This document shows positions 26,113 to 53,565 of a stretch of 64,000 nucleotides of DNA, piece by piece. The notes under the pieces were generated by a model that was not told the DNA's origin, searched no databases, and saw only the letters and a program-made list of their open reading frames with translations. Numbering within the stretch: position 1 is the stretch's first letter; every line of letters begins with the position of its first letter. The position numbers and the translations under genes are program-made. The stretch comes from Pristiophorus japonicus (taxonomy: Eukaryota), in contig NC_091984.1 of NCBI RefSeq assembly GCF_044704955.1, forward strand, positions 144,770,001 through 144,834,000, in the 5' to 3' direction.

Positions 26113-27519
26113 TCCAATTCAGCTCAACATCTTTGAAACCCAAACCCGCGGACAGTGACGGACAGGTAAAGACCCTGTGGTCCATCCAGCCCGTCCCACA
26201 CAATTGCAATACCTTGTGTATCACAGTATAGACTCTCCACCCCATCCAAAACTACCTGATCTCCTGGGAGAGGCGAAAAACCAGGGAAAAAACCCATTGG
26301 GGGAAATAAATCTGGGAAACTCCTCTTCGACCCCCCCCGCTCCCCCCGGGTGATGGAAACTAGTCCAGGAGGTCACTGTGGCCCTGAATTCCCTGCAGTA
26401 ACTACCTTCTTTAAGTGGTGATCTCCGCACCGGCCACAAACAGGTCCTGCTCTCGCTTATGTGCAGCTCATGGATTCAAATTACAAGCTTTCCCCACAGT
26501 GTCAAGTGCTGCAAATACTGTGTTACATTATCAGGGTTATATTCTCACTGTCTGTCATTGTCACAACACTCGCTATATAAATGCAAGTTGTTGTTGTGTT
26601 TAGGGGCTGCTGTATCTGGCTTAGGCTTCTTATCCATCCCCCCTTCCCTTCCCCCTTCATTGGGGGCCGTGCCTTCAGCTGCCTGGGCCCTAACTCCCTG
26701 CTCCCTAAACCTCTCTGCCACTCCACCCCTCTCCTCTTTTAAGATCTCCCTTCAAACCCAATCTGTGACTCCCCCTCCCAGCCCCTCCCCCTTTGGCTCA
26801 GCACCACTTTGACCAGATTACGCCTCTGTCAGCTGCCTCGGGATGTTGTTCTAATGTTGCAGTTGCTATAGCAATGCAGGTTGTTGCTGCTGTACCTGGT
26901 GCAGAGCGTCTCTGTGTGGATATACCCCGTGCACTGAGCTCCGCGGTGAGGCCTCCCACAGTGGAATGACCTGCCGATGCTCGCTGCAGTGCGGAGTGGC
27001 TACTGACCCGCCAATCGGTCTGAGACACCACCTCACGAGCGGACGAGGAGATACACGCTGAGATCCATCATCAAATGACACGTGGGGAACTGGAAATGAT
27101 TCTGAAAACCTGACTGAAGGTTTGGTACAAACGGGTTTTACAAACCAATCAATTGAGTGATACAGAAATTGTCCAAAAATGTGGTCTTTTCAGAACCAAC
27201 ATCGCTTCCTTTTGGTATGAAGACAGCACTGCCAATTTCCCTCACAATTTGACTGAGCTGCAATTTTCAATGTCTCCTTACGTGGCTCGCTGTCAACCTT
27301 TATTCTATAACGCTCCTGTGAAGCGCTCGGGGAGTTTTACTGTGTTAAAGGTGCTGTATAAAAGTTGCTGTTGTTGTTTGTTCTGAGTTAGCTGTTCCAA
27401 CTGAGGTCGGGATGTGACTCACAGCTCAGACTTTGCGGCATCCAGTGATGCAATGTTGTATCGTGGGTTCAAGCCCCACTCCAGGGACCTGAGTGTAAAA
27501 GAAAGACATACACTACTGT

Positions 27520-27850
27520 GCAGTCCTGAGGGAGTGCTGCACTGTCAGAGGGGCAGTACTGAGGGAGTGCTGCACTGTCAGAGGGGCAGTACTGAGGGAG
27601 TGCCGCACTGTCAGATGGGCAGTACTGTCGGAGGGGCGGTACTGAGGGAGTGCCGCACTGTCGGAGGGGCGGTACTGAGGGAGTGCCGCACTGTCGGAGG
27701 GGCAGTACTGAGGGAGTGCTGCACTGTCGGAGGGGCAGTACTGAGGGAGTGCCGCACTGTCAGAGGGGCAGTACTGTCGGAGGGGCGGTACTGAGGGAGT
27801 GCCGCACTGTCGGATGGGTGGTACTGAGGGAGTGCCGCACTGTCGGAGGG
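27520..27850. repeat. 33-bp minisatellite expanded from a SINE internal segment
   Basis: Unit CAGTACTGAGGGAGTGCCGCACTGTCGGAGGGG. The same motif occurs once in the SINEs at ~12248 and ~21473. Confidence 0.92.
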
Positions 27851-28267
27851 TGTGCGTGTGTGCATTGGGAAAGTTCAGTCCTAGTCACGCAGCAATTGTT
27901 GGCAATGGTCTCTGATGAAGTCCATGTAGCCTCTGTTGGGTTCCCCTGGATCATTCTCAGTTACTGAGGAAGTCTCGGCAAATCCAATACATGGGAATAC
28001 CGAGCGCAGTGTTGGCCGACTTGACCTGGTGACCTGCTCACTGTTTCGATCCAGGTGCAGCAACACCTGGAACCTCCGATTCCCCCCTTGGCCAAGTTTC
28101 CCAGCACACTGAGCGCTTCAGTCCTCACTTTATCGCACGGCATCGCAGAGCGGTTGAATCCTTGCGTGAGATTTGTCTGCAAACAGTTGGATGGTGTCTG
28201 CTCTCAACTGGATTATGTTCTTGCAGAGGCTCGACAGCGCCTCCTTCTGGTTCTCCTTGTTCCCCCA

Positions 28268-30202: not shown

Positions 30203-33200
30203 GAGAGAAATCTCAGATCACACACAGATCGGGAGAACTTTATCCGGGAACATTGCGGCACTCTTGTATAAACACACTTCAGCAAGGCTTCATGTTGGGT
30301 GTCGGTGTAGAAGCTTCTAGATTGCATTTAAAAGCTTGCTGCCCAGCACCGGGGTGAGGTCAAGGGTGAGGCTACAATTAGCCTCAGTGTACCGGGGTCA
30401 GGCAGGGTCACTGCTCCCAATGATCCCGTGACCTCCTGGAAGGTCAGAGTGCGTGGACAATGGGCGAGGGTCAGGACCAGGGACCTCTCACTTCAATGAA
30501 AGAAAGCCTTAAATTTATATTGCGCCTTTCACCACCTCAGGACGTCCCAAGCTGCTTTACAACCAATTGCACACAGGAAGGTTTACGAGGATGTTGCGAA
30601 GACTGGAAAATTTTAGATATGAGGAGAGATTGGATAGGCTGGGTTTGTTTTCTTTGGCACAGAGGAGGCTGAGGGGAGATTTAATTGAGGTGTATAAAAT
30701 TATGAAGGGCCTAGATAGAGTGGATAGGATGGAACTATTTTCCTCAGCAGACTGGTCAACAACCAGGGCATAGATTTAAAGTAGGTGGTGGGAGGTTTAG
30801 AGGGGATTTGAGGGGAAATGTCTTCACCCAGAGGGTGGTGGGGGTCTGGAACTCACTGCCTAAAAGGGTGGTAGAGGCAGAAACCCTCACCACTTTTAAA
30901 AAGTACTTGGATGTGCACTTGAATTGCCGTAACCCACAGGGTTACGGACCCAAAGCTGGAAAGTGGGATTAGGCTGGATAGTTCTTTGTCGGCTGGCGTG
31001 GACAAGATGGGCCGAATGGCCTCCTTTCATGCTGTAAATTTCTCTGATTCAATGAGATCATGACCAGATCATCGGTTTTAACTATGTTAGTTGTGGGATA
31101 AATATTGGCCAGGACACTGGGAAGAACCTCCTTGTCCTTCCAATCATGATTATATGAGCTTTCATGCCCACTTGAGTTAGATTTAGCGTAGTTATGTAAA
31201 AGGACAAAGATAGAGCAGGAATAAAGGTTCTCAATTGCGGAAAGGTCCATTTTACTAAGCTGAGAGGTGATTTAGCAAAAGTGGGCTGGAAACAGCTGCT
31301 TGAAGGTAAATCAGTGTCAGAGCAGTGGGAGGTATTCAAGGGGGAGATAGTGAGGGTTCAGAGCAAGTATGTTCCACAAAGGAAAAGGGTGGCACTCCCA
31401 AATCTAGTGCCCCTTGGATGGCAAAGGGCAAACAGGGTAGGATAAGGCAAAAAAGGGAAGCTTATGTCAGATACCCAGAGCTAAATACTGCAGAAAGCCC
31501 AGAGGCATATAGAAAGTGCAGGGGTGAAATTAAAAAGGAAACTAGGAATACAAAGAAAGGGCATGAAAAAATATTGGCAAGTAAAATCAAGGAAAACCCA
31601 AAGATGCTTTGTAAATACATAAAGAGCAAGAGGATAACTCAGGAAAGAGTTGGGCCGATTAGAGACCAAAAAGGTAACCTGTGTGTGGAGGTGGAAGACG
31701 TGGGTATGGTTGTAAGTGAATACTTTGCATCTGTCTTCACAGAAGAGAGGAACAATGCAGACATTGTAATGAAGGAGAAGTATGAAATATTAGATGTGAT
31801 AAACATAGTGAGAGAGGAAGTATTAAGGGGTTTAGCTTCTTGGAAAGTGGATAAATCCCCAGGCCCAGTTGAAATATATCCCAAGGGAGGAAATAGCGGA
31901 GGTTCTGACCATCATTTTCCAATCATCCCTGGCTACAGGTGTAGTGTCGGAGGACTGGAGGACTGCTAACATGGTACCTTTGTTTAAAAAGTGAGAAAGG
32001 GATAGCCCAAGTAATTACAGGCCAGTCAGCCTAACCTCGGTGGTGGGAAAATTATTGGAAACAAATCTGAGGGAGAGGATAAATTGTCATATAGAAAGGG
32101 ACGGATTAATCAAGGACAGTCAGCAAGGATTTGTTAGTGGAAGGTCGCGCCTGACTAACTTGAGTGAATTTTTTGCGGAGATAACAAGGAGGGTCGATGA
32201 ATGTTGCACCTTTGATGTTGTCTACATGGATTTTTGCAAGGCATTTGGTAAAGTCTCACATGGCAGAAAAGTAAAAAGCCCAGGGATCCAAGGGAAAGTG
32301 GCAAGTGGGATCCAAAATTGGCTGAGTGGCAGTCTCTCACTCTGTCTCCATCTCTCACTCTCCCTTCCCCACAGACTCCCAGGTGCAGCACACTGAAATG
32401 CAGAGTAAACCTCCCTGTGCCCTGCCCCACCAATTAACCCTTGACCCCAGAGCATGCCTTCTCCTGGAGTAAGGCCCCATTCCCCACAGTGGCCATCCCT
32501 TTGCCTCTCTCAGTACACTGGCTGTTTATTGCCCAATTAAGGGTCGTTCTGTGCTGTGGGCCTATTCTCAGTGGGGACCGGTTTGGACAGAAATCTCATT
32601 TCATGAAGGCTCAACAGAGGGAGGAGATCCTCACCCCATCAATGTGAGCTGGAGCGACAGGACAGGGTCTGACCCACTGCCCCATCCTGTCTGCTCAGAA
32701 CATCTTCGAATCCCTTCCCCTCTCCTTCCCCTTCCATGGCCCGGCTCCAGGTCAGGGTGTGCCAATGATCCCAAATTTGCACCAGGAAGGGTCCGCACTC
32801 TACGTCTACCATGGACTCCATATCCCACTGGTCCTCCAATCGAGCCCAGGCAACATGGTTCCTTCCTTGGTCCCCCAGTAGGGACCAGGAAACATGGCTC
32901 CTTCCTATTGGTCCCACAATAGGGACCAAGAAATATGGATCCTTCCTATTGGTCCCCCAATAGGGACCAGGCAACATTTCTCCTTCCTATTGGACCACAC
33001 TGACCTACTGCCCCTGACATCCCTGCCCTCTGAGAGTCTGTGCTGAGGGTGAGGTGCCCTGCGGTCAGTTATCCTGTTGGCAAGCATCTTGAGAATGTTG
33101 GCACGTTAAAGGCACCAGATCAATGCAGACTGTGTGTGGATTTCGGGTGTGGATAGTGCTGGACACAATGGTGAGGCCTCCTGCAGTCGGATATCCTGCT

Positions 33201-33415
33201 GAGAGAGTCCAGGCTTACACACGTGGAATGGGGAAGTGGGTGAGGTTGGAACATGCTGTCAGGGCCCATGGAACTGGACCCCAGCATGAAGCCTTCCTCA
33301 GGAGAGGAGAGGGAATGTTCAGAGCCCTGGGCTCCATTTTCCACACCAGGCATTTCCTGTCCCAGTGAATGAATGAGATGCCAATTTTGTGCCCAGGTTA
33401 GGGGCAGTCTAGTGC
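30203..33415 (-). pseudogene. Inverted relic of a kappa cluster lacking promoter, L, V, J and C
   Basis: ~30203-32332 is the reverse complement of ~9334-11963 (J-C intron). ~32340-33000 is the reverse complement of ~53570-54280 (V upstream). ~33090-33415 is the reverse complement of ~47705-48020. Confidence 0.88.
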
Positions 33416-33429
33416 TGTGGAAAACTAGA

Positions 33430-36240
33430 TTTAAGTAATGCCCCTCTTTAGAAAAGAAGGCAGTCAAAAAGCAGGAAACTCTAGACCAGTTAGGCTAACA
33501 TCTGTAGTTGGGAAAATGTTGGAGTCCATTGTTAAAGAAGCAGTGGCAGGAGATTTGGGAAAGCATAATTCAGTCCGGCAGAGTCAGCATGGATTTATGA
33601 AGGGGAAGTCATGCTTGACAAATTTGCTGGAATTCTTTGAGGTTGTAAAGAACAGGGTGGATAAAGGGGAACCAGTGGATGTGGTGTATTTGGACTTCCA
33701 GAAGGCATTTGAGAAGGTGCCACGTAAAAGATTACTGCGCAAGATAAAAGTTCATGGGGTTGGGGGTAATATATTAGCATGGTTAGAGGATTGGCTAACT
33801 AACAGAAAACAGAGAGTCGGGATAAATGGTTCATTCTCAGGTTGGCAATCAGGAACTAGTGGGGTGCCATAGGGATCAGTGCTGGGACGTCAATATTTAC
33901 AATCTATATTAACGACTTGGATGAAGGGACTGAGTGTAATGTTGCCAAATTTGCTGATGATACAAAGATGGGAGGAAAAGCAATGTGTGAGGAGCACACA
34001 CAAAATCTGCAAAAAGACATAGACAAGCTAAGTGAGTGGGCAAACATTTGGTAGGTGGTGTATAATGTTGGAAAGTGTGAGGTTATGCCCTTTGCCACAA
34101 ATAATCGTCGAGCAAGTTATTATTTAAATGGAAACAAATTACCAAGTGCTTCAGTACAGCAGGACCTGGGGGTCCTGGTGCATGAAACACAACAGGATAG
34201 TATGCAGGTATAGCAATTGATCAGGAAGACAAATGGAATCTTGGCCTTTATTGCAAAGGGGATGGAGTACAAAAGCAGGGAAGTCTTGATACAATTATAC
34301 AGGGTATTGGTGAGGCCACACCTGGAAAATTGCATGCAGTTTTGCTTTCCATATTTACGAAAGGCTAAACTTTCAAGCAGTTCAGAGAAGGTTCATAGAA
34401 ACATACAAACAAAGAAAATAGGTGTTGGAGTAGGCCATTCGGCCCTTCGAGCCTGCACCACCATTCAATATGATCATGGCTGATCATGTAACTTCAGTAC
34501 CCCAATCCTGCTTTCTCTCTATACCCCTTGATCCCTTTAGCTATAAGGGCCATATCTAACTCCCTTTTGAATATATCTAACAAAGTGGCCTCAACAACTT
34601 TCTGTGGCAGAAAATTCCACATGCTCACAACTCTCTGACTGAAGAAGTTTCTCCTCATCTCAGTTCTAAATGGCTTACCCCTTATCCTCAGACTGTGATC
34701 CTTGGTTCTGGACTTCCCCAACATCGCAAACATTCTTCCTGCATCTAATCTGTCCAATCCCGTCTGAATTTTATATGTTTCTATGAGATCCTCTCTCATT
34801 CTTCTAAATTCCATTGAATATAAGCCTGAATCATTGGTGTATATTACAAAGAACAAGGGACTTAGTACTGAGCCCTGTGGCACCCCACTCGAAACAGCCT
34901 TCCAGTCACAAAAACACCTATTGACCATTACCCTTTGCTTCCTGCCACTGAGCCAATTTTGGATCCAACTTGCCACTTTCCCTTGGATCCCATGGGCTTT
35001 TACCTTCGTGACCAGTCTGCAATGTGGCACCTTATCAAAAGTCTTGGTAAAATCCATATACACTACATCAAATGCACTGCCCTCATCGACCCTCCTTATT
35101 ACTTCTTCGGTGAATTCAATTAAGTTCGTCGTCCAGGTTTTGTTGCATGTGGGCATGTGCCAGTTCATTGGATATATTCAAGAGGGAGTTAGATATGGCC
35201 CTTACGGCTAAGAGGATCAAGGGATATGGAGAGAAAGCAGGAAAGGGGTACTGAGGGAATGATCAGCCATGAACTTATTGAATGGTGGTGCAGGCTTGAA
35301 GGGCCAAATGGCCAACTCCTGCACCTATTTTCTATGTTTCTATGCTTCATTATCTGAGGAATATTAATTAAGGAAAGCCAACATAGATTTGTTGAAGGTA
35401 AATTGTGTTTAGCCAATTTGATTGAGTTTTTTGATGAGGTAACAGAGAGGGTTGATGAGGATAATGTGGTTGACGTATTCCAAAAGACATTTGATAAATT
35501 GCCACATAATAGGCTTGCCAGCAAATTTGGAGCCCATGGAATGGGGAATGGTAGCATAGTGGTAATGCTACTAAACTCGTAATCCAGAGACCTGAACCAA
35601 TGATCCACAGACATGAGTTCAAATCCCATCACAACAGCTGGAAAATTTAGATTTAGTTAATTAAATAAATCTGGAATAAAAAAGCGAGTGTTAGTAATGG
35701 TGACCATAGAAACATAGAAAATAGGTGCAGGAGTCGGCCATTCGGCCCTTCGAGCCTGCACCGCAATTCAATAAGATCATGGCTGATCATTCCTTCAGTA
35801 CCCCTTTCCTGCTTTCTCTCCATACCCCTTGATCCCTTAACCGTAAGGGCCATATCTAACTCCCTCTTGAATATATCCAGTGAACTGACATCAACAACTC
35901 TCTGCGGCAGGAAATTCCACAGGTTAACAACTCTCTGAGTGAAGATGTTTCTCGTCATCTCAGTCCTAAATGGCCGACCCCTTATCCTAAGACTATGTCC
36001 CCTGGTTTTGGACTTCCCCAACATCGGGAACATTCTTCCCACATCTATCCTGTCCAGTCCCGTCAGAATCTTATATGTTTCTATGAGATCCTCTCTCATC
36101 CTTCTAAACTCCAGTGAATAAAGGCCCGGTTGAGCCAGTCTCTCCTCATATGAGAGCCCAGCCATCCCTGGCATCAGTCTGGTGAACCTTTGCTGCACTC
36201 ACTCAATAGCAAGAACGTCCTTCTTCAGACTAGATGACCA
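33430..36240. mobile_element. Nest of CR1 fragments on both strands plus a tRNA-derived SINE head (~35548-35705)
   Basis: Repeated RT and C-terminal CR1 motifs in ORFs 33438-33872(+), 34494-35168(-) and 35653-36198(-). Confidence 0.88.
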
Positions 36241-36244
36241 AAAA

Positions 36245-36618
36245 TTAACTCAAGATTTGATAGAGAATTCAAACTGGCTGCATTCAGACAGGCTGTGAAA
36301 ATTCACAGACACCAAGTCAGAGCTGCTATGTGAGTGGGAGCATGTTGCATTAAGTCATCAATCAACTTGACATTTTAGGATTTTGGGTGGCGAGCCAATT
36401 AAAAGGTTAAAAGACTATAAATTAAGCCAATAAGGTCAAAGAAGGCGAGTTCTTTTCTATAACTTGATCCAGGTATAAGTACAGCCATTTTGACTATGTG
36501 ATATCAGAAGGACAAAGACCTGGCTTAAAGCCAAGAGCTTCTTACTGCTGCCAAAAATAAAGTGACATTAAAGCTACAATCGGAGTTCGTATTTCATTGG
36601 AAATTAAGAGATCTAACA
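36245..36618 (+). mobile_element. 5' LTR of an endogenous retrovirus, left end cut by CR1
   Basis: TATAAG near 36474 and AATAAA at 36556-36561. Ends ...TAACA at 36618, just before a primer-binding site. Confidence 0.75.
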
Positions 36619-36622
36619 ATTT

Positions 36623-36640
36623 TGGCGTCACGAACACGAT
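36623..36640 (+). promoter_or_regulatory. Primer-binding site, tRNA-Ser(CGA)
   Basis: TGGCGTCACGAACACGAT. It differs at one base from TGGCGTCACGAACAGGAT, the complement of a vertebrate tRNA-Ser(CGA) 3' end as I recall it. A splice donor GAG|GTAAGG follows at 36688. Confidence 0.8.
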
Positions 36641-36904
36641 CGCTGAGGGAAGAAACTGAATTTTGGACATCGGACCTACATACTGAGGTAAGGACTCCTC
36701 TATAAAAGTCCTCGGTCAAAAGTCTAAATTCGCCTCTCCTTCTTCGTGATTCCAAAAGCCTCCGGTTTGCGAACCCTCCAGTTGGTAGTCGGTTCGAGGT
36801 CCCATAGATGTCTAAACTTCGGCGGTGTGTTAGTTAATTAATCACCGACCTATTGATCGGCTAGAAAGCCTACGACTCGAGACTCCAGTAAAAAAATCAG
36901 TATT

Positions 36905-38465
36905 ATGGCAGCAGGAGATAAGAGCAAAGAATTGCCTACAACTGTTAAAGGTGGGCAAGCGCCACTTGAGATTTCGCTAGATGAAATTCTCGAACAGTTG
37001 AAAGAATACATAGAGCAACAATTCAATTTAACTAAAACCTATATTAAGATCGAACAAAAGTACGGAACCTCCAAAGGACAATGGTCCTTGGACGAGATTA
37101 AAAAGGTCTGGGGAAAAACGATCCGTGTGAAAAATAAAGAGCGAACTAGATGGTCCCTAGCCATTATGGGAACGATCCGAAACTGGAATGAAATTATAAC
37201 GCGTTCCCAACCTGATCGAGAACTGACCAGTACAAAGGATCAATTGCAAGCTGTTTGTGCACAGCTGCGACAGAAAAAGCTTGAACTTGAAAAGCTGGAA
37301 GCGGAAGTTAAAGATCTTAAAGGTGAAATTACAGAATGGAAAAAATCATTCGGTCAAGAGACAGTAATAGGAAAAGGAAAATGTATCGGTCAATTCCCAG
37401 GGTACCCATGTTTGGATAAATTAAAAGCGCAAACCTGAAGACACGACCGAGGAATAGATACGAATTCTGAATCCTCCGACGATACAGTGTCGGAGGATGA
37501 AGAATTAGGGGTGCGCTTTGCCCCATTTAAAAAAAGACCAGTTGTAGTCAAATCAGAAGAGACTGCGGATGAGGGCGGAACCAAAAAAACAAGGAAAAGG
37601 GTGTACGAAAAATACTTGGTTCATGATACGGCAGACCCAGAGAAAATTGATAAATGGTCCAAGGAATTGACCAATCCAAAGAAAGGGGGAGTGAAAACGT
37701 GGGACCAATTGGACCGCTTAAGAAATATATATCAACTTCATCCCTGGGACGGAGTGCAAATTTTGACCATAATGGTGCCAAAAACACAGGGAAGAAAATT
37801 GCACGACAAGATAGAAGAAGCTTTGGGGCAGGATGAGCAAGAATTAGACTCAGGGTGGGAGGCGATTAAACACTGGCTGCAAGCCTTCAGTCCAGCTAAG
37901 ACAGACTGGGGAAAATTGCAGCCTGCCAACAGAAAGGAACAGAGGAGGTCCTGGAGTATGACGAACGGTTTAGATGCACGTGGCTGGAACATTCAGGTAT
38001 GAATAATACGGATGAGGAAATGGATGAACAAGTGTTTGGACCCCTGAAAGCAGCTTTCGTGGCAGGTCAAAAGCCAGAACTGTCCAAAATGCTTAAGGTA
38101 GTGTTACCGGACTGGGAAGGTAGAGGAACTACCTTTGCAGCATTGGTGGATCGATGTAACCAATTAGATCGGGATATGGGAGCTAAAGTCCGAGCTGTAC
38201 AGGCTATGGGATGGAAATCCCAGGATTCCGATAAACAGTCAATTGGAAAATTACCCGGAAAATGTCATTATTGTGGGAAAGAAGGTCACTGGGCCAAGAC
38301 GTGCAGGGCAAAACAGAAAGGTCGTGGCTGGGGAAGAGGACGCAGCCAGGGATACATTCAGCCAACAAACCAGGCTTGTCACAAGCTAACGACCTCATAG
38401 AAGCGTTTAAGCAACTGACAATACAACAACAGAAGGAGTTACTTGGGATAGCAAAAAACAATTAG
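36905..38465 (+). pseudogene. gag: ERV gag (several frameshifts)
   Basis: Consecutive ORF pieces from ATG 36905, a heptad-rich segment and a single zinc knuckle CHYCGKEGHWAKTC. Ends at TAG 38463-38465. Confidence 0.88.
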
Positions 38466-39942
38466 AGCCCACCCTGGCCCCTCTCCTCGCACTAATACAA
38501 CAGAGGGGAGATGGGCTATATATAACTGTGAGGGTGGGCGATAAGGATGTGGACTGTCTTTTAGACACAGGGGCGGAATTAACATGCTTACCCCTACAAT
38601 ATGGAGACTTTTTGCCGTTGGATGGTAGGGCACGTACAGCCTATGGAGTTGGAGGCCATAAAATGGAAATTAAAAGGACAACACTGGTACTTATAGGGCT
38701 GGGTCCACATGAACTAACCACGCTGGTCTGGATAGGCCCAGTAGATCAACCCCTTTTGGGAATGGACATTCAAATCCAAATAGTTTCATCGTTGCATTTT
38801 GAGGATGGTCGGGTGACATGGTCAATTAGAACTTTGAAGAAAGAAAAATTGAAGGAACACCCAATATGGGCTAAAGATAAGAACGATCGTGGCCTACTCC
38901 AGATGGAGCCTGCGTCATTTACCGGGAGCAAGCCTCCATGCACTAAACAGTATCCCATCAGTCCAACTGCCATCGCGGGAATCTTACCGGTTATTCAGCA
39001 ATTGGAGAAACAAGGGGTGCTTATTAAAATGCATAGCTCCTCCAATAGCCCCGTGTGGCCGATACAGAAATCTAATGAGACATGGCGTTTGACTGTCGAT
39101 TATAGGAAAACTAACCAGTGTATTGATCAAAAAGCTCCTTTGGTTGCAGATCCCTCCACCATTTTTAATGCCCTCAAACCGGAACATTAATATTTCTCGG
39201 TTATAGATATGGCCAACGGATTTTGGTCGGTGCCTCTGGCACCGGAGGTTCGAAAGTGGTTTGCTTTCACGGTCCAAGGACAACAGTATACTTGGACCCA
39301 GTTACCGCAGAGTTTCCACAACAGCCCTACGGTATTCCACATGGCTTTACAAAGCCATTTGCGAGAATTACCTCCCCTGTCATCCACAGTCATCCAATAT
39401 GTAGACGATATCCTGCTAGCTTCAAACACGGAAGACCAGCATGAACAAGATTTACGAGCTTTGCTAGACCACCTTTGGCTGAAAGGACATAAAGCCAGCA
39501 TCGACAAAGCACAAATATCCCAAGAAGAGGTTGTATACCTGGGACAAAAGATTTCACAAGGAAAGAGAGAACTTAACCGGGATAGAACTGCAGCCAATCG
39601 GGCTGCTAAAAAACCCACCACTATTCAGCAACGAAGGTCTTTTTTGGGATTGTGTAACTTTAACAGAAATTGGAATGACTCCTTCACACAGCTTGTTCAG
39701 CCACTGAATGATATTTTAAGGAGGAAACGTGCCTCTAAAGAAGCCATCACCGTCACTAAGGAACAGCAAGAGGCCTTCCTGAGTTTGAAAAAGGCTTTGT
39801 ATTCGGCACCGGCTCTAGGAATCCCCGACAGTGGTAAGCCATTTGTCTGTTTGTCCATCACAAAGAAGGATATATGACAGCGAAACTGACACAAGCACAT
39901 GGGGATCGGCAAAGACCTATTGGCTATTATTCGGCAAAACTG
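38453..39942 (+). pseudogene. pol: ERV pro-pol (protease, RT, connection domain), truncated by CR1
   Basis: LLDTGA; NSPVWP..K..WRLTVDYR; DMANGFW; QYTWTQLPQSFHNSP; YVDD; RSFLGLCNF; RPIGYYSAKL. In-frame TAA at 39188-39190. Confidence 0.95.
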
Positions 39943-40413
39943 TACTGCATCTACCATGCATTTGCCCACTCACCTAACCTGTCCAAGTCACCCTGCTGCC
40001 TCTTAGAGTCCTCCTCACAGCTCACAATGCCACCCAGTTTAGTGTCATCCGCAAACTTGGACATATTACACCCAATTCCTTCATCTAAATCATTAATGTA
40101 CATTGTAAAGAGCTGGGGTCCCAGCACTGAGCCCTGCGGCACTCCACTAGTCACTGCCTGCCATTCTGAAAAGGACCCGTTTATCCCGACTCTCTGCTTT
40201 CTGTCTGCCAACCAGTTCCCTATCCACATCAGTAGATTACCCCCAATACCGTGTGCTTTGATTTTGCACACCAATCTCTTGTGCGGGACCTTGTCAAAAG
40301 ACTTTTGAAAGTCCAAATACACCACATCCACTGGTTCTCCCTTCTCCACTCTGCTAGTTACATCCTCAAGTGGTTGACATTTAACTGCCCTGTGAAATGG
40401 CCCAGTGAGTCAC

Positions 40414-41045
40414 TGTAAGATGTGTGGATTTACCTCTCACCCATCCAACAGTTTAGAGAGTTCGGACCCATGGAACAGACAGCTTAAGACAAAGGTTTCT
40501 GGAATAAGTTCTCTTTACTTAAAATCAACAAGAGGTTACAAGTAAGCCTCTAATAGTACTGTTACACACAGTAATCCCGGATTATAAATAAGCCTCTAAT
40601 AGTACTGTTACAAACTTTCGCAGCTTTTTTTATACCCCAAAACTGGGCAGTCCCTCAGTGTGTCCGTGTCCCATTCGATGGGAGTAATGGGCAGTCCCTC
40701 AGTATGTGCATGTCCCATTCGATGGGAGTAATGGCCGTAGATGTTCTTCTCCTCTCCTGATCAACCAACTAGACAGTTAATCAGTGGGCCTCAAAACTGG
40801 AGACTTCATGTGTGCTGATGTTCCTGTTTCTGGGTCTGTTCTCGCAAAGCTCTCACGGTCTGAAGGCCACTATTTCCCTTACCTGTGAAACACAGCTTTC
40901 GAAGTAGCTCAACCACAGGACAGATTGCAGCGTTCAGCAGCTTTAATGGACATTTGTGCAGCAGAAAGTCCTGTTGGCCTCGCGAGGCATGCTGGTACAT
41001 AAAATCTGGTCAAGTTACAGCAAACTTGTACAAAATCTTTCCCCA
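40414..41045 (-). mobile_element. Probable solo LTR of a different family
   Basis: TG...CA ends. On the minus strand GGGGTATAAAA (~40638-40628) precedes AGTAAA (~40519-40514). Two short internal duplications; no clean TSD seen. Confidence 0.55.
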
Positions 41046-41159
41046 CTCAGTTGTACAAACCACTATTAAAAAAAGGAACTGCGGTTCTTCTCAAGGGCAA
41101 TTAGGGATGGACAATAAATACTGCCTTACTGGCGACACCCACATCCCAGGAACTAATAA

Positions 41160-42590
41160 AACAAATTAAAGGGACAGTGGCAGCATGGATACGAAATTGG
41201 CTAAGGGACAGGAAACGGAGAGTAGTGGTGAACGGTTGTTTTTCGGACTGGAGGAAGGTATACAGTGGTGTTCCCCAGGGGTCGGTACTGGGACCACTGC
41301 TTTTCTTGGTGAATATCAATGATTTGGATGTGAGTACACAGGGCACAATTTTAAAATTTGCAGATGAAACAAAACTTGGAAGTACAGGTTGTACCTTCCT
41401 TATCGAGAATTCCCTTATCCGGAATCACTCCTCGACCAGAACCATTTCCGGCCACTCCGACGTGAACAAATTGAAGAAATGAAAGTCCTTCCTCACTGCC
41501 GACTCTCACAATCGCTGGCCTGACCCCGTGATCCACCGCCTCTCCTAATGATCTCTCTACCACACTCCCAGCCCCAAGCCAGCCAGCCCCGATAACCCCT
41601 TGCTCAGTACCTGTACCATCCAATTTAACATGACCATCCCTCGTCTGGAAAAATCCCTTATCCAGAACAGGCCAGGTCCCGAGGGTTCCGGATAATGGAG
41701 GTTTAATCTGTACAGTGATCAATGAGGAGGATGCTGATAGGCTTCAAAACATAGACAGGTTGGTGGAATGGGCGTAGACGTGGCAGATGAAATTTAACGC
41801 AAAAAAGTGTAAAGTGATACATTTCAGCAGAAAGAATGATGAGAGGAAATATAAACTAAAGATTACAATCATAAAGGGGGTAGCATGAACATAGAGACCT
41901 GGGGGTATATGTGCACAAATCGGTTTAGGTGGCAGGGCAGGTTGACAAAACGATTTCAAGAAAGCATACGGGATCCTGGGCTTCATAAATAGAGGCATAG
42001 AGTACAAAAGCGTGGAAATTATGATGAACCTGTATAAAACACTGGTTTGGCCTCAACTGGAGTATTGTGTCCAAGGAGGTGAAAGCCTTGGAGAGGGTGC
42101 AGAGGGGATTTACAGGAATGGTTCCAGGGATGAGGGACTTCAGTTACGTGGATAGACTGGAGAAGCTGAAGTTGTTCTCCTTGGAGCAGAGAAGGTTGAG
42201 AGGACATTTGCTGGAGGTGTTCAAAATCATGAGGGGTCTGGACAGAGTAGATAGAGAGAAACTGTTCCCATTGGCTGAATGGTCGAGAACCAGAGGACAC
42301 AGATTTAAGGTTTTTGGCAGAAGAACCAAAGGCGACATGAGGGAAAACTTTTTTACGCAGCGATTTTTACGCAACGTGGTTAGGATCTGGAATGCGCTGC
42401 CTGAAAGGGTGGTGGAGACAGACTCAATCGTGGCTTTCAAAAGGGAATTGGATAAGTACCTGAAAGTAAACAATTTGCAGGGCTACGGGGAAGGGGGAGT
42501 GGGACTTGCTGAAGTGCTCTTGCAGAGAGCTGGCACATGCTTGATGGGCCGAATGGCCTCCTCCTGTGCTGCAACCATTCTATGATTCAG
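41160..42590 (+). mobile_element. CR1 RT to 3' end, interrupted by a MITE
   Basis: [31 protein letters not shown]. Confidence 0.88.
41385..41710. mobile_element. Tc1/mariner (Tigger-like) MITE
   Basis: TA on both flanks (41383-41384, 41711-41712). Imperfect TIRs: CAGGTTGTACCT..TTATCCGGAA versus CAGATTAAACCTCCATTATCCGGAA on the other strand. Confidence 0.8.
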
Positions 42591-44980: not shown

Positions 44981-47900
44981 AGGATACCTCTACCACCCTT
45001 TCAAGCAGTGAGTTCCAGACCCCCACCATCTTCTGGGTGAAGTAATTTCCCCTCAAATCTCCTCTATACCTCCCCCAAATTACTTTAAATCTATGCCCCC
45101 TGGTTTTTGACCCCTCTACCAAGGAAACCAGGTCCGTCCTATCCACTCTATCCAAGCCCCTCATAATTTTATACACCTCAATCAGGTCTCCCCTCAGCCT
45201 CCTCTGTACCAAAGAAAACAACCCCAGCCTATCCAATCTTTCCTCATAGTTAAAATTCTCCAGTCCAGGCAACATCCTCGTAAATCTGCTCTGTACCCTC
45301 GGTTTAACGTCTCATCCGAAGAAATCGTACTGTTAATTAAACACTGAAGGCAAGAACTTTGAAGTGTTGGGAATACTCAATGTATCAAGACAGGAACATT
45401 GTAAACATTGATTGTGACATCATGCACTCACAACCTCCCCATAGTATGCACAATGTGAGCACCAGACCCGAGGACAGAACCCAAGGAGATGTGCCCAGCA
45501 CCAATCCAGGACAATGATCAATGTAAAGCCAAAGCTGAATGTTATCAGGGCTGCTTTGCCGATGATTGCCCTGTGATCGCGGGCACCAGCAGCACACACA
45601 CCTCTTGTGGGTACAGTCGTGTTGTGGTTATGTTGCTGCAGAGCACTCCACAGGCCTGCACTAATAATCCCCACAATCTCACCATGGCCCTTTGACTATT
45701 TCAATTCAGCTCTTTTTTAAATTCTAGAAACAAAAATCTGGTCTCAGTAAAAGTGACCAGAAAGCTGTCAAATTGTCACAAAAGCCCAATTGGTTCACTG
45801 ACATCCTTTAGGGAAGGAAACCTGCCGTCCTTGCCACATAAAAGGTTACTGCCCAAGATAAGAGCTCACGGGGTTGGGGGTAATATATTAGCATGGATAG
45901 AGGATTGGCGAATGAACAGGAAACAGAGAGTCGGGATAAATGGGTCATTTTCAGGTTGGCAAACTGTAATTAATGGGGTGCCGCAGGGATCAGTGCTGGG
46001 GCCTCAACTATTTACAATCTATATAAATGACTTGGATGAAGGGACCGAGTGTAATGTAACCAAATTTGCTGATGTACAAAGATAGGTGGGAAAGCAAGTT
46101 GTGAGGAGGACGCAACGATTCTGCAAATGGATATAGACAGGCGAAATAAAAGGGCAAAGATTTGTCAGATGGAGTATAATGTGGGAAAATGTGAGGTTAT
46201 CCACTTTGGTAGGAAAAACAAAAAAGCAGATTATTATTTAAATGGGGCGAGATTACAAAATGCTGCGATACAGTTCATTGATATCTTCCTGCAGTCTACA
46301 GCTTTCTTCTTCATTATCAACCACACAGCCGATTTTAGTATCATCTGCAATCTTCTGAATCATACTCACTACATTGAAGTCTAAATCACTGATATATACC
46401 ACAAAAAGCAAGGGACCCGGCACTGAGCCCTGCAGAACCCCACTGGAAACAGCCTTCCAATCAACCCATCAACCATTACCCTCTGCTTCCTGCCTCTGAA
46501 CCAATTTTGGATCCAACTTGTCACTTTGCCCTCGATCCCTGGGCTTTTACTTTCATGACAAGTCTGCCATGTGGGACCTTATCAAAAGCCTTGTTAAAAT
46601 TCATACACACGATATCTTATGCACTGCCTTCATCGATCCTCCTGGTTACCCCCGCAAAAAATTCAATCAAGTTATTCAGACATGACCTTCCCTTAACAAA
46701 TCCATGCTGACTGTCCTTGATTAATCCGTGTTTTGTTCAATGAAGATTCCTCCTATCCCGCCCCCGAGGTTAGGCTGACTGACCTTTAGTGACTTGAACT
46801 ATCCCTTTCTACCTTTTTAAACAAAGGTACCACGTTTGCAGTCCTCCAGTACCTGGGATTGCAATGTCAGCATCGCCCCTCTCGGCCAGCTCGGTCAGTA
46901 GTGGTGCTACCGAGACACTCTTGGTGATGGACAGTGAAGTCCCCCACCCAGAGTACATTCTGTGCCCTTGCTACTCTCAGTGCTTCTTCCAAGTGGTGTT
47001 CAACATGGAGGAGTATTGATTCATCAGCTGAGGGAGGGCGGGAGGTGGTAATCAGCAGGAGGTTTCATTGCTCGTGTTTGACCTGATGCCATGAGACTTC
47101 ATGGGGTCCGGAGTCAATGTTGAGGACTCCCAGGGCCACTCCCTCCCGACTGTATACCACTGAGCTGCCACCTCGGGTGATGGAGGAGTCTGGGACATTG
47201 GCTGAAAGGTCTGATTCTGTGAGTAGGACTGTGTCAGGCTGGTGCTTGACTAGTCTGTGGGGCAGCTCTCCCACTTTTGACACAAGTCCCCAGATGTTGG
47301 TGAGGAGGACGTTGCAAGGTCAGCACTGAGCCTGGGTCCGCTGTCCGAGCCGGTCCGAGCTGCTGTTATTCTGCCTGATTGAACGGTTATTATTAGAGAT
47401 TCAGACCACAGCAGAAATCCCCCATGCAAAAAATAACTGAAGAGACTGTCAGATCGGAAGAATGAAACTTCACCCACAGAGGAAGTGAAAGAGGGAGGTT
47501 GTCACAGCTGTACGTTTGTTAATGGCACGGGAGAAAACTGTGAACCGCGCTCACAGCCTCGAATCTTACAGCACAGAAGGAGGCCATTCGGCCCATCGTG
47601 CCTGTGCCGGCTCTTTGAAAGAATTACCCAATTAGTCCCACCCTCCTTCTCTTTCCCCGTAACCCAGCAAATTGTTCCTTTTCAAGTATATATCCAATTC
47701 CCTCAGCATTAGACTGCCCCTAACCTGGGCACAACATTGGCATCTCATTCATTCACTGGGACAGGAAATGGCTGTTGTGGAAAATGGAGCCCAGGGCTCT
47801 GAACATTCCCCCTCCTCTCCGGAGGAAGGCTTCATGCTGGGGTCCAGTTCCATGGGCCCCGACAGCAAGTTCCGACCTCACCCACTTCCCCATTCCAAGT

Positions 47901-48149
47901 GTGTAAGCCTGGACCCTCTCAGCACGATATCCGACTGCTGGAGGCCTCACTACTGTGTCCAGTACTGTCCTCACCCGAAACCCACACATTGATCTGGGGC
48001 CTTTAACGTGCCAAAGGTCTCAAGACACTTCACATCGCTGCTGTAAAAGCGGGGAGAGTGGGGGTTCAGGGGGCTTTCGGAAGGATGATTGAAGGCCTGG
48101 GTGAAAGAATGGTTTTTGATGAAGGAGAGAGAGCTGGAGAGGGGGAGGG

Positions 48150-50610
48150 ATTAGAACATAAGGAATAAGAGCAGGAGTAGGCCATACGGCCCCTCGAGCC
48201 TGCTCCGCCATTTAATATGATCATGGCTGATCCAATAATGGACTCAATTCCACTTCCCTGCCCGTTCCCCATTACCCCTTATTCCCTTATCGGTTAAAAA
48301 ACTGTCTAATTCTGTCTTAAATTTATTCAATGACCCAGCTTCCACAGCTCTCTGAGGCAGCGAATTCCACAAATTTATAACCCTCTGAGAGAAGAAATTC
48401 CACCTCATCTCAGTTTTAAATGGGCGGCCCCTTATTCTAAGATTATGCCCTCTCGTTCTAGTCTCCCCTATCATTAAAAACATCCTCTCTGTATCCACCT
48501 TGTCAAACCCCCTCATAATCTTATATGTTTTGATAAGATCACCTCTCATTCTTCTAATTTCCAATGAGTAGAGGCCCAACCTACTCAACCTTTCCTCATA
48601 AATCAATCCCCTTATCCCTGGAATCGACCTAGTGAACCTTCTCTGAATTGCCTCCAAAGCAAGTATGTCCTTTCTTAAATATGGAAACCAAAACTTTATG
48701 CAGTGTTCCAGTTGTGGCCTCACCAATACTCTGTATAACTGTAGCAAACACTTCCCTGCTTTTATACTCCATCCCCTTTGCAATAAAGGCCAAGATTCCA
48801 TTGGCCTTCCTGATCACTTGCTATACCTGCACACTAACCTTTTGTGTGTCATGTACCAGGACCCCCAGGTCCCACTGTACTGCAACACTTTGTTATTTTT
48901 CTCCACATAAATAATAACTTGCTCTTCGATTTTTTTCTGCCAAAGTGTATAACCTCACACTTTCCAACATTATACTCAATCTGCCAAATGTTTGCCCACT
49001 CACTTAGCCTGTCTATATCCTTTTGCAGCATTTTTGTTTCCTCCTCATACCTTGTTTTTACTCCTATCTTTGTAGCATCAGCAAACTTGGCTACATTACA
49101 CTCGGTCCCGTCTTCCAAGTTGTTAATATAGATTGTAAATAATTGGGGTCGCAGCACTGATCCCTGTAGCACCCCACTAGTTACTGATTGCCAACCCAAG
49201 AATGAACCATTTATCCCAACTCTGATTTCTGTGAGTTAGCCAATCCTCTATCCAAGCTAATATATTTCCCCCCAACCTCATTAACTTCTATCTTGTGCTT
49301 TTTATGTGGCACCTTATCGAGTGCCTTCTGGAAATCCAAATACACCACATCCACTGGTTCCCCTTTATCCACCCTGCTCGTTAAATCCTCAAAGAATTCC
49401 AGCAAATTTGTCAAACATGACTTCCCCTTCATAAATCCATTCTGACTCTACCTGACTGAATTATGTTTTTCCAAATGGCCTGCTACTGTTTCTTTAATAA
49501 TGAACTGCAACATTTTCCCAACCAGAGATATTAGGCTAACTGATCTATAATTTTCTGCTTTTTGTCTGCATCCTTTTTTTAATAGGGCATTACTTTGCAG
49601 TTTTACAATCTGCTGGGATCTCCCCAGAATCCAGGGAATTTTAGTAAATTACAATCAATGCATCCACTATCCCTGTCACTACTTCTCTTAAGACCCCAGG
49701 ATGTAAGCCATCAGGTCCAGTGGATTTATCCGCCTTTAGTCCCATTATCTTACTGAGTACCACCTCCTTCGTGATTGTGATTGTGTGAAGTTCCTCCCCC
49801 CCACTATAAACCCCTGACTATGCATTATTGGGATATTTTTAGTGTCTTCTACCGTAAAGACTGCTTCAAAATATTTGTTCAGAGTTTCTGTCATCTCCAT
49901 GTTCCCCATCACTAATTCTCCGGTCTCGTCCTCGAAGGGACCAACATTGACTTTAGCCACTCTTTTCTTTTAGTGTACCGGTAGAAACTCTTGCTATCTG
50001 TTTTTATATTTTGTGCTAGTTTACTTTTCATTTTCCCTTTCTTAATCATTCTTTAGTCATTCTTTGCTGGATTTTAAAAGCTTCCCAATCTTCTGCCCTC
50101 CCACATTGTATGCCCTTTTTAAAAAAAAATTGGATACCGTCCTTTATTTCTTTAGTTAGCCATGGATGGCTATCTTTTCTTTTACACCCTTTTCTCCTCA
50201 CTGGAATATATTTTTCTTGAGAGTTATTAAATATCTCCTTAAATATACGCCACTGTTCATTAACCGTCCTACATTTTAATCTATTTTCCCAGTCCACTTT
50301 AGCCAACTCTGCCCTCATACTTTGTAGTCTCCTTTATTCAAGCTTAGTACGCTTTCTCACCCTCCATCTGAATTTGAAATTCAACCATGCTATGATCACT
50401 CATTGCAAGGGAATCGTTGACTGGGAGATTGTTTATTAATCCTGTCTCATTACACAGGACCAGATCTAAGATAGCCTGTCCCCTTGTTGGTTCTGTTACA
50501 TACTACTCAAGGAACCCATCCCTTATGCACTCTATGAACTCTTCTTCAACGCTTCCCTGACCAATTTGATTTATCCCATCAATATGGAGGTTAAAATCAC
50601 CCATTACAAG
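48150..50610 (-). mobile_element. CR1 LINE, 5'-truncated
   Basis: Serial ORF2 motif fragments from endonuclease end to C-terminus. Confidence 0.9.
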
Positions 50611-51280
50611 TCATACCACGACAACTTCCAGCGCGAGCTGCTCCACGTGAGCAACGGCTTCGAGGTGGGCGATTGGGTGATGTCATCAGAACCCAGGTCG
50701 CCATTTGGAGCGTGGGCAGGAGCATCGGCTGGGCCCAGGTAAAGCAGAGAAGCTGGAAGGTCGCGGCGGAGGTGTGGTGAGTGATCGAGGTGGAGGAGCG
50801 ATGAGGGATCGTGGCTGAGATTCGGTGTGTGATCGTGGCAGAGGTCCGGCAAATGTTTAGTGCGGCGGTGCAGCGGGAGATTGTGGCAGAGGTCCGGCAA
50901 ATGTTTAGTGCTGAGGAGCGGCGAGAGATCGTGGCAGAGGTGTGACTAATGAGGGTTCGGAGCCCAAAAGAGCCGAGGGCCCAGGGGCAGCACGGGCCAG
51001 CCCACACTGTGATATGTATGCGCACTAGGTCCGTGCAGCAGAGCAGGTCTCCAGTCGTCCTGGTTTACCCTTGTCACTGGATAAAGGCGTAGCTCTTTCA
51101 AGCCCGTGTGGTGGCTGATGTGCAACAGTCACCACATGTTAAAAAAAATCTACACACAGGCATCTTCCACCCCCTCAATTGGCGTTCAGGTCTAGAATAT
51201 CGGGTTCTTCATTGAGACATCTCTGAACTCATTTGGAAGCAAGTCATCCTCGTTCGAGGGATCACCGAAGATGATGATGA

Positions 51281-51460
51281 GTAGGTCAGTGAGGTCAGGG
51301 GCAGTAGGTCAGTGAGGTCAGGGGCAGTAGGTCAGTGAGGTCAGGGGCAGTAGGTCAGTGAGGTCATGGGCAGTAGGTCAGTGAGGTCAGGGGCAGTAGG
51401 TCAGTGAGGTCAGGGGCAGTAGGTCAGTGAGGTCAGGGGCAGCAGGTCAGTGAGGTCTGG
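51281..51460. repeat. 23-bp tandem repeat, eight units
   Basis: Unit GTAGGTCAGTGAGGTCAGGGGCA. Confidence 0.97.
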
Positions 51461-51679
51461 GGCCAATACGTGAGTGAGGGCGTGGGGAGAGAGGAGGGGA
51501 AGTGAGGGGGAGGGGGGGGAGAGAGGAGGGGGAGTGAGGGGTGGGGGGTGAGAGAGGAGGGGGGGAGGAGATGGGGGAGAGACGAGGGGGAGAGAGGCGG
51601 GGGAGGGAGGGAAGGGAGGGAGTGGAGGGGGGATGGGAAGTGGGGAAGGGGAGGAGGAGGGGGGAGAGAGGAGGGGGGA

Positions 51680-51847
51680 NNNNNNNNNNNNNNNNNNNNN
51701 NNNNNNNNNNNNNNNNNNNNNNNNNNNNNNNNNNNNNNNNNNNNNNNNNNNNNNNNNNNNNNNNNNNNNNNNNNNNNNNNNNNNNNNNNNNNNNNNNNNN
51801 NNNNNNNNNNNNNNNNNNNNNNNNNNNNNNNNNNNNNNNNNNNNNNN
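51680..51847. other. Assembly gap inside a G/A-rich tract
   Basis: Run of N flanked by G-rich low-complexity sequence. Confidence 1.
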
Positions 51848-52249
51848 GGGAGAGCGGGGGGAAGCGGGGGAGAGGGCGGGCCGAGCGTCGGCGGAGGGAG
51901 GGAGGGTGGCATGAGCGTCTCCGGGGGGAGGGAGGGTAGGAGGGCCGAGCGTCGGCGGGGGTAGGGAGGCACGAACGTCACCAGGAGGAGGCCTGTACGT
52001 AAGGGCGAGGCGTGAAGTTCGGGCCCAAACCTGTGGATGGAGGGGGTTGAGGCTCACAGCCGTTGAGATCACCGGGGATTGGTCGGAGAAGCTGAGTCGG
52101 CCAATGGGGAGTGAGAAATGAGAAGCGAGGGTCCAGCTGGATGGACATGGCAGCAGGCAGGTCGACCTGGAAGGTAGGCTGAGTATGGGGGTTGGGCAGT
52201 GGGACCTTGCGCACGGGGTTTTAGGGCTTTTGGGGTAGGTAAAATACTT

Positions 52250-53565
52250 TCACCGCAGTCAAGTCCACCAAAGGCCCAAGGCCCCACCCAACTGCTGGCC
52301 AAGAACAGGGAGACACTCACCAAGGACACCAAGGCAGTCAGGACTCACTGGAAGGAGAACTTTGAAGATCTCCTTAATTGAGACTCAGCCTTAGACACGA
52401 GTGTCCTCGACTCCATTCGCAGCATGCTACCCGCGACCTTCTCAGTAAAACCCCAGCCCTGCACAAGGTTGAAACATAGAAACATTGAAAATAGGTGCAG
52501 TCGTAGGCAATTTGGCCCTTTGAGCCTGCACCACCATTCAATAAGATCATGGCTGATCATTCACCTCAGTACCCCTTTCCTGCTTTCTCTCCATACCCAT
52601 TGATCCCTTTGGCTGTAAGGGCCACATCTAACACCCTCTTGAATATATCCAGTGAACTGGTATCAACAACTCTCTGCGGCAGGGTATTCCACAGGTTAAC
52701 AACTCTCTGAGTGAAGAAGTTTCTCCTCATCTCCGTCCTAAATGGCCTACCCGCTATCCTGACTGTGTCCCCTGGTTCTGGACTTCCCTAACATTGGGAA
52801 CATTCTTCCCTGTCCCGTCCCGTCAGAATCTTAAATGTTTCTATGAAATCCCCTCTCATCCTTCTAAACTCCAGTGTATAAAGTCCCAGTTGATCCAGTC
52901 TCCCCTCATATGTCATTTGTCAGCTCAAGAACAACAATGCATCGGGAGCGGATGGAATCGCTGCTGAGGCATTAAAGTATGGCAGAGAGGCACTATTGGC
53001 ACGAATGCATAACCTCACCTCTCTCATCTGGAGGGAGGAGAGCATGCCGGGAGATATCCGAGATGCAGTAATCCTGATCCATCTTTGAAAAAGGGGACAA
53101 GTCCGACTGCGGCATCCGCAGAGGAATCTCCCTGTTATCAGCCATTGGAAAAGTCATCGCTAGAATCCTCCTCAACCGTCTTCTCCCTGTGGTTGAGGAG
53201 CTCCTGTCGGAGTCACAATGCGGATTCCGTCCACTACGGGGTACAACGTACATGTTATTTACGACGCGACAACTGCAAGAGAAAAGCAGGGAACAGCACC
53301 AACCCTTGTCCATGGCCTTCTTTGACCTTATAATGGCCTTTGACACTGTTAACCACAAGGGTCTGCGGAGCGTCGTCCTCCGTTTCGGCTGCCCCCAAAA
53401 GTTTGTCGCCATTCTCAGTCTGCTCCACGATGACATGCAGGCTGTGATCCTGACCAATGGATCCATCATAGACCCAATCCACGTCCAGACCTGGATCAAG
53501 CATGGCTGCGTCATCGCGCAAATTCTCTTCTCGATCTTCCTCACTGCAATGCTCCACCTCACACT
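52250..53565 (+). mobile_element. RTE-clade LINE RT fragment with a nested minus-strand CR1 tail (~52472-52915)
   Basis: ESQCGFRP.RGT..M.F..RQLQEK.REQ..FFDL..AFDTV...GCP.KFV. Confidence 0.88.

Follow-up and report, generated by a model that had tools for sequence, protein, structure and literature searches.

An endogenous retrovirus of the shark Pristiophorus japonicus points to a probably frameshifting shark-and-teleost lineage beside class I retroviruses

We analysed a stretch of 64,000 nucleotides from the genome of Pristiophorus japonicus (assembly GCF_044704955.1, contig NC_091984.1, positions 144,770,001 to 144,834,000 of the forward strand), hereafter the window, in which coordinates are counted from the first letter. 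It contains an endogenous retrovirus (ERV) at 36258..39942, a real provirus that is decayed and deleted, the window copy being dead sequence. In our best explanation, which we regard as probable, the element belongs to a retrovirus lineage of sharks and teleosts that is sister to class I and likely expresses its pro-pol gene by frameshifting. The lineage is likely a little-described one of fishes, next to the gamma- and epsilonretroviruses. The element stands outside class I in the position of its reverse transcriptase (RT), in its gag-pol junction and in its target site duplication (TSD). In its way of working it is like a simple orthoretrovirus whose envelope is gamma-type.

The gag-pol junction

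The features of the window copy are as follows.

36258..36618, + strand: 5' long terminal repeat (LTR), 361 bp, TG...CA, with AATAAA at 36556; ends fixed from 15 copies
36623..36640, + strand: primer binding site (PBS) for tRNA-Ser(CGA), 17/18 complementary to the host tRNA gene plus CCA
36685..36693, + strand: splice donor consensus GAG/GTAAG with GT at 36688; putative, likely for env mRNA
36905..38465, + strand: gag, broken in the window copy, with helical N-terminus, predicted coiled coil, capsid fold, CCHC knuckle and C-terminal helix
38263-38304, + strand: CCHC knuckle (Pfam zf-CCHC)
38453..38459, + strand: slippery A AAA AAC heptamer, in frame with gag, whose stop is at 38463-38465; likely -1 frameshift site
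38462..39942, + strand: pro-pol in the -1 frame, with protease DTG at 38564-38572, RT YVDD at 39398-39409 and the start of the tether
39942..39943, no strand: deletion breakpoint, with about 4.24 kb missing (rest of pol, env, 3' LTR and some flank)

A preliminary description of this DNA, made from the sequence alone, had placed pro-pol in the -1 frame, and this is borne out in the window copy, relative to the end of gag. The end of gag reads ...GCA AAA AAC NNN TAG, so that A AAA AAC is in phase for a -1 slip; heptamers of this type are known from the gag-pro junctions of mouse mammary tumour virus and human T-cell leukaemia virus. The junction set comprised 52 stretches, three of which come from another family, leaving 49 to be counted. 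A AAA AAC is found in 44 of them and a gag stop within two codons in 46; the -1 frame is open to the protease motif in 41, an ATG precedes this motif in two, and a protease motif in frame 0 occurs in one. In the second family of the same genome, described below, the same heptamer stands in phase directly before TAG in all three copies, and pol is in the -1 frame in two of the three. Because of the heptamer site and its conservation, -1 ribosomal frameshifting between gag and pro at A AAA AAC is likely.

Fish Gag proteins point the same way. Among knuckle-bearing Gag homologues, 12 of the 20 top-scoring ones end in GN, KN or LN followed by at most one residue, compared with 3 of 40 weaker ones (Fisher p 2e-5), and these are the dipeptides encoded by G GGA AAC, A AAA AAC and U UUA AAC, respectively. 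Furthermore, at the point where a related Gag terminates in EKN-stop, a Gag-Pol model from zebrafish continues as EKKL, which is the -1 reading. The class I contigs of the comparison set carry gag and pol in frame (6/6). Articles are cited here by PubMed Central (PMC) number or as bioRxiv preprints. In one of them, a 2026 review (PMC13517186), read-through is reported for gammaretroviruses, epsilonretroviruses, WDSV (walleye dermal sarcoma virus), SSSV (salmon swim bladder sarcoma virus), ZFERV (zebrafish endogenous retrovirus) and SnRV (snakehead retrovirus), and frameshifting for alpha-, beta-, delta- and lentiviruses; the idea that SSSV frameshifts is contradicted there.

Several observations weigh against programmed frameshifting. 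The 49 junctions are not independent, and up to eight of them (L002-L006, L008-L010) may be duplicates of the window insertion. The GN/KN/LN pattern was spotted before it was counted, and the junction evidence from teleosts comes from protein ends, not DNA. Downstream RNA structure reaches z scores of -2.1 to -2.3 in the window copy only; two further copies of the family score -1.0 and -1.4, and those of the second family lie between -0.4 and +0.4. Moreover, in these pseudoknot-free folds the hairpin begins some 15 nt away from the heptamer, versus the 5-9 nt expected for a stimulator.

Phylogenetic position

Since the closest Pol proteins are those of teleost ERVs, with 52-66% RT identity before a drop to about 45%, the lineage is not shark-specific; by cluster names, these relatives come from Cyprinus, Coilia, Alosa, Astyanax, Danio and Gadus. 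A first FastTree phylogeny held 105 of 118 RT rows, 13 chimeric or near-duplicate rows having been removed. In a careful RT tree of 57 chosen rows, with five Gypsy contigs as the outgroup, the shark and teleost sequences form a clade (100/99) that is sister to gamma+epsilon (93/95). The tree of RT and integrase (IN) combined (28 of 29 rows, one Gypsy row having fallen out) gives the same sister relationship at 99/97, with gamma+epsilon itself at 100/99 without the clade. Quick trees of single domains group the clade with gamma+epsilon for RNase H (48 of 57 rows, support 93) and with class I for IN (45 of 57 rows, support 81, P0028 joining). When the clade was forced together with epsilon-like rows, the arrangement was rejected (p 0.0002). 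A simian foamy virus (SFV) row and the ERV-L/S-like rows fall outside the clade in the RT and RT+IN trees, and in both trees the Gypsy rows split off at 100/100. The deep lineage outside the classical genera that the preliminary description proposed is supported: the element lies outside gamma+epsilon, the foamy row, the ERV-L/S-like rows and Ty3/Gypsy, and mixes traits of separate classes. One of the findings that it had named as fatal to this view, an RT nested inside Ty3/Gypsy, was not made.

The sister relationship is itself open to objection. A placement outside every other retrovirus sampled survives the approximately unbiased (AU) test (p 0.246 for RT; 0.089 for RT+IN). The trees are without lokiretrovirus, SnRV, WDSV, SSSV and class II sequences, and the IN tree is without CGIN1. 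Moreover, 'gamma' and 'epsilon-like' are our own labels: the former is anchored only by a contig like murine leukaemia virus (MLV) and by Gag_p30 domains, and the latter denotes unnamed class I rows from fish, reptile and marsupial.

A scan of IMG/VR with the Pol alignment gave 44 pattern matches, none of which was confirmed. One relative was found on a metagenome contig (L031:1586-7676), in which a Gag-like part is fused to tether, RNase H and integrase, with a TLV_coat env and a different PBS. It is the sole long clade member from the metagenome scan, and is without protease, RT and a normal junction.

Pol and Env

Domains were read from natural single copies of the family. Pol is ordered protease, RT, tether, RNase H, integrase and MLVIN_C. 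Both RT motifs quoted in the preliminary description, QYTWTQLPQSF and YVDD, are present in the window copy, and the RT motif is of the LPQG type. RNase H matches MLV/XMRV at 1e-45; the highest-ranking entry other than MLV reaches 2e-9, and a protease-RT-RNase H chain of foamy type 4e-8. The integrase ends in an MLVIN_C tail (E 7e-12); its best match in the Protein Data Bank is a foamy integrase (2e-27), in a match list from which the gammaretroviral core is absent. The structure model of Pol is weak, with a predicted local distance difference test score (pLDDT) of 56, and the BFVD identities drawn from it are rough only: 34% to WDSV, 31% to Q2VF30 and 23-32% to Q88285, i.e. about equally distant. 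We take Q2VF30 to be SSSV and Q88285 to be SnRV.

The Env open reading frames (ORFs) match TLV_coat in all three cases tested (E 5e-17 to 7e-18), and no match to PF00523 (Fusion_gly) was obtained at E 0.1 in the same three or in duplicates of the window insertion. Env carries CWVC (a CXXC motif), the furin site RPKR, the immunosuppressive domain LQNRLALD and CX6CC, and its nearest named relatives are from sharks and rays.

Gag and the znfl1 genes

The heptad-rich stretch of Gag quoted in the preliminary description lies inside an ORF at 36857-37438. In Gag from a natural copy of the family, hydrophobic residues occupy one of the heptad positions in 7 of 8 places, and the AlphaFold2 model (pLDDT 82, 100 rows) has a predicted helix of 72 residues in the N-terminal region. 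Gag begins MAAG. The capsid fold of the model is closest to MLV capsid (Z 11.8 and 11.3; Foldseek E 1e-5), and its C-terminus is a helix pair. A single CCHC knuckle had been claimed, and one is indeed what we find. Searched as part of the whole Gag model, the N-terminal domain gave no fold match beyond generic helices. Pfam gives no Gag_p30 match in Gag, and Retrotrans_gag scores weakly, below the cut-off (E 0.002-0.09).

A word search with Gag returned four matches, the zebrafish znfl1 cluster among them, and a profile search returned 387, with Pimephales, Esox, Scyliorhinus and Callorhinchus among the 150 listed. Zebrafish znfl1 ('zinc finger-like gene 1'; P0126, P0192-P0205; NP_001139173.1) is 32% identical to the shark protein over 505 aligned Gag residues, nearly its whole length (E 2e-81). 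It shares the single knuckle and the C-terminal helix, and ends QGN-stop; the difference is that znfl1 is annotated as a host gene family. As judged by the titles of znfl1 papers and by passages, znfl1 is not described as a retroviral Gag in the literature searched. We also considered whether znfl1 is Bhikhari-2 and found no support for it: the passages of PMC12067270 do not name znfl and call Bhikhari loki-related. Bhikhari Gag proteins act in zebrafish development (PMC12067270).

The Callorhinchus milii protein V9L759 (P0313), named 'RNA-binding protein 4', shares 44% identity with the C-terminus of Gag and has KNA as its last residues. Because of this resemblance and this ending, the elephant shark likely also has the lineage. 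Second in rank among fold matches to the Gag model is BFVD entry V5NX06, 'ICP4c' of Chelonid alphaherpesvirus 5 (E 2e-9). A gamma-type env has been reported from this virus (bioRxiv 2021.11.23.469661), so a retroviral gag may have been captured by it too.

The family and the history of the insertion

The RT region gave 1428 candidates in the genome; the 40 that were scored are 96-98% identical, excluding the self hit. The LTR recurs as the 3' LTR in all 20 dispersed family copies fetched. The LTR of the preliminary description is thus real, but its start, given as 36245, was placed 13 nt too early. The tRNA-Ser type of the PBS was correctly recognized, the match being to the 3' end of the host tRNA-Ser(CGA) gene plus CCA. 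Four nucleotides (36619-36622) separate LTR and PBS in the window copy, in 15/15 copies and in the second family; this spacer is usually 2 nt. The splice donor proposed at 36688 holds at the sequence level, with the consensus at the equivalent position in 14 of the 15 copies with a 5' LTR that were examined. A spliced joint from this donor to env was not seen in four sequencing runs of unspecified kind (contigs covering 29/30 bins).

Copies with env are 7.1-8.7 kb long, most of them close to 7.7 kb, whereas env-deleted copies are 6.4-6.6 kb. Of the 457 Env residues, at least 435 remain in seven of the 20 copies and fewer than 100 in 11; two copies are partial. The PBS of seven env-deleted copies (L016, L018, L019, L021, L023, L024, L029) is Ser-type and unlike that of env-bearing copies; a search of host tRNA genes found no exact match for this second type. 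The TSD is an exact 5 bp in 10 of 15 copies and 4 bp in one, with none exact in four. The two LTRs of a copy differ by a distance of 0.018-0.076 (15 copies), computed with LTR ends set 2 nt too long; this corresponds to about 4-17 million years at a mammalian rate, and to tenfold older ages at the elephant-shark rate assumed in PMC4422223.

The second family was met in three copies (L118, L126, L127; L134-L136) with about 70% nucleotide identity to the first and the same primer type and slippery site. Its Gag is 50-63% identical to that of the first family, and two of the three copies go from RT or tether directly into env, without RNase H and integrase. When P0264, P0313 and P0270 were used to look for additional families, most of what came back was the first family, and 3 of the 24 loci belonged to the second.

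The window copy is interrupted by stops at 37436-38 in gag and 39188-90 in pro-pol, and by frame breaks near 37910-37940, 38310-38360 and 39850. No further family sequence was found within the window beyond 39942. The insertion lies in a tandem segmental duplication (C8 at about 143-148.6 Mb and C1231; window 35985-41500), and its 3' flank is repeated, at 96-99%, in at least seven other places. All four paralogues of the insertion that were fetched (L139-L142) have the 5' flank in common with it and continue for another 4.24 kb, which comprises the rest of pol, env and the 3' LTR. Since they keep that part, the window copy lost it by deletion.

Beyond the breakpoint, the provirus is flanked by one further feature.

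39943..40409, - strand: fragment of a non-LTR retrotransposon with an RT of the long interspersed nuclear element (LINE) type, outside the provirus; Pfam RVT_1; repeated within the window

It is followed at 40420-41040 by a repeat that contains short duplications and, in reverse, a TATA-like run; this repeat is present at several loci on other contigs and is possibly the LTR of another element. Elsewhere, minisatellites occupy 27487-27900, 51246-51498, 32828-32996 and 53565-53825, with periods of 33/17, 23 and 41 bp, and the stretches 32071-33423 and 47698-54285 have long inverted repeats in common (78-93%).

Proposed life cycle and alternative explanations

Under the explanation that we favour, genomic RNA would be primed by tRNA-Ser. 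Most ribosomes would stop at the end of gag while a fraction slips back one base into pro-pol, and Env would be made from mRNA spliced at the 36688 donor. In the spread of the family, env-bearing copies would have come first and been joined later by env-deleted ones; the insertion would then have multiplied through tandem segmental duplication, and the window copy would have lost its 3' half. A more far-reaching version, which we put just short of an even chance, makes this a genus-level lineage of sharks, chimaeras and teleosts that is sister to all of class I, made its own switch to -1 frameshifting between read-through relatives on both sides, and is the source of the znfl1 genes as its Gag genes. 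The parts most likely to be new are the frameshift, the 5-bp stagger and the znfl1 link. The lineage was probably sampled already in earlier RT trees, its traits passing unremarked. In the passages and titles of the literature searched (mostly open-access, with Repbase and figures outside the coverage), a frameshifting fish lineage beside class I is not described.

The clade may already figure in published trees of RT or Pol, or under a name in Repbase, which would leave as new only the details of frameshift and TSD; we put this at somewhat less than an even chance. In passages of PMC8672886, most zebrafish class I ERVs look like the ancestor type of epsilon and gamma; bioRxiv 2021.11.23.469661 has clades Pol-LGE.1, LE.1 and LE.2 and screened cartilaginous fishes; and PMC4977317 has extra epsilon-like zebrafish families. 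A further candidate is CmiERV lineage I of the elephant shark, which is SnRV-like and, by eye, has a tRNA-Ser PBS, the same CTAACA LTR end, one knuckle and a similar Env. However, its RT motifs resemble the P0027/P0028/P0032 group, a separate branch with 41-46% RT identity, and its gag-pol junction looks, by eye, like an in-frame stop. Nor do the passages of the cited papers describe a frameshifting sister group of class I, figures, bioRxiv supplements and Repbase lying outside the comparison. A different objection is that the -1 offset is not programmed: pol would have a spliced RNA of its own, as foamy viruses do, or else the offset would be an inherited indel of a defective master copy. A splice donor does lie upstream of gag, and a conserved stimulatory RNA structure was not found at the junctions. 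On the other hand, a start codon between junction and protease motif is found in just 2/49 junctions, and the heptamer recurs, with its phase unchanged, in the second family despite an identity of about 70%. An inherited indel is further disfavoured because fish Gag ends fit three different heptamer types, which would not result from one such event. We consider this explanation improbable.

The lead of the preliminary description, a lokiretrovirus that would extend this group to cartilaginous fishes, is very unlikely. A coiled-coil Gag is found in the loki-related Bhikhari-1 (PMC12067270), the RT has YVDD, the AU tests leave a position outside other retroviruses unrejected, and a loki survey with none in the five chondrichthyan genomes listed (PMC7947760) leaves room for one. 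According to passages of the same survey, lokiretroviruses are defined by RT position, an F-like Env, a foamy-type RNase H and a CGIN1-like integrase. Here, by contrast, Env is gamma-type and without PF00523, also in copies of the window insertion, the RNase H is MLV-like and groups with gamma+epsilon while that of lokiretroviruses groups with foamy viruses (PMC7947760), the integrase has MLVIN_C, and the RT motif is LPQG-type versus CPFG/TPFG in two loki sequences of the PMC7947760 supplement. The best trees also put the clade beside class I, at 99/97 for RT+IN, although RT trees alone leave room for a loki-like position. As judged from its sequence, the element thus fails as a lokiretrovirus on Env and RNase H, and membership is not supported. 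Scans of the shark's own genome gave no match to a loki-type RT motif pattern and, with a stricter first look and silent controls, none to PF00523, neither of which shows absence. As to a Ty3/Gypsy retrotransposon, the chance is close to nil: Gag has the weak Retrotrans_gag score, and Gypsy elements commonly have -1 frameshifts and TSDs of 5 bp, but the shark element has a tether with a separate RNase H and a gamma-type Env, the Gypsy rows split off in the trees, and RT identity is 25-30% to Gypsy versus 35-46% to other retroviruses.

If the favoured explanation is true, a frameshifting lineage beside class I would mean that the mode of Gag-Pol expression switched near the class I base. For comparisons of gamma and epsilon Pol, the lineage would also serve as a near outgroup, one whose integration stagger is 5 bp. 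Furthermore, if znfl1 is a retroviral Gag, studies that treat it as a host zinc-finger factor would need re-reading.

Comparison with known systems

Membership of Spumaretrovirinae was rejected, since a CCHC knuckle is present, an ATG rarely precedes the protease motif and the SFV row lies outside the clade. Lokiretroviruses (PMC7947760) have in common with the shark element fish hosts, a tether with RNase H, YVDD and, in the related Bhikhari-1, a coiled-coil Gag. They differ in the RT motif, in their paramyxovirus-F-like Env as opposed to a gamma-type one, and in a foamy-type rather than MLV-type RNase H. ERV3/ERV4 (PMC4299795) share the 5-bp TSD but are without the Gag zinc knuckle and the GPY/F integrase tail, both of which are found in the shark element. 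ERVs related to SnRV and Ovex1 are still without a class, and a knuckle or GPY/F is present in some of them (PMC4299795). XtERV-S (PMC8278194) likewise has a serine tRNA primer and a gamma-like transmembrane protein, but differs in having no Gag zinc knuckle, TGA read-through and a dUTPase region.

In the elephant shark, one SnRV-like and two epsilon-like lineages are reported (Han 2015, PMC4422223). The first of these, CmiERV lineage I, further resembles the shark element in its repeat-rich helical Gag and, by eye, in closely similar Env motifs. It differs in the Ser isoacceptor site, in the RT branch, in the junction that looks like an in-frame stop, and in an LTR about twice as long. Rows that resemble it by motif form a separate branch in our trees, SnRV itself not being among the rows.

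Class I (Gammaretrovirus, Epsilonretrovirus, SSSV/ZFERV) is the nearest sister group in all trees built, and basal class I fish clades are mentioned in PMC8672886 and bioRxiv 2021.11.23.469661; these may include the shark-plus-teleost clade. The shark element has in common with class I the gamma-type Env, MLV-like RNase H, MLVIN_C, one CCHC knuckle, YVDD and the MLV-closest capsid fold; the class I combination of one or two Gag knuckles with a GPY/F-type integrase tail is thus present (zf-CCHC, MLVIN_C). However, class I has an in-frame gag stop (gamma, WDSV, SSSV, ZFERV; PMC13517186) where the shark element has a -1 offset with a slippery heptamer, and its TSD is usually 4 bp (PMC4299795) as against 5 bp in 10/15 copies of the shark family, TSD length being known to vary within classes (PMC4299795). 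Unlike class I, moreover, the shark element has an RT outside gamma+epsilon, no Gag_p30 match, a MAAG start and a long coiled coil.

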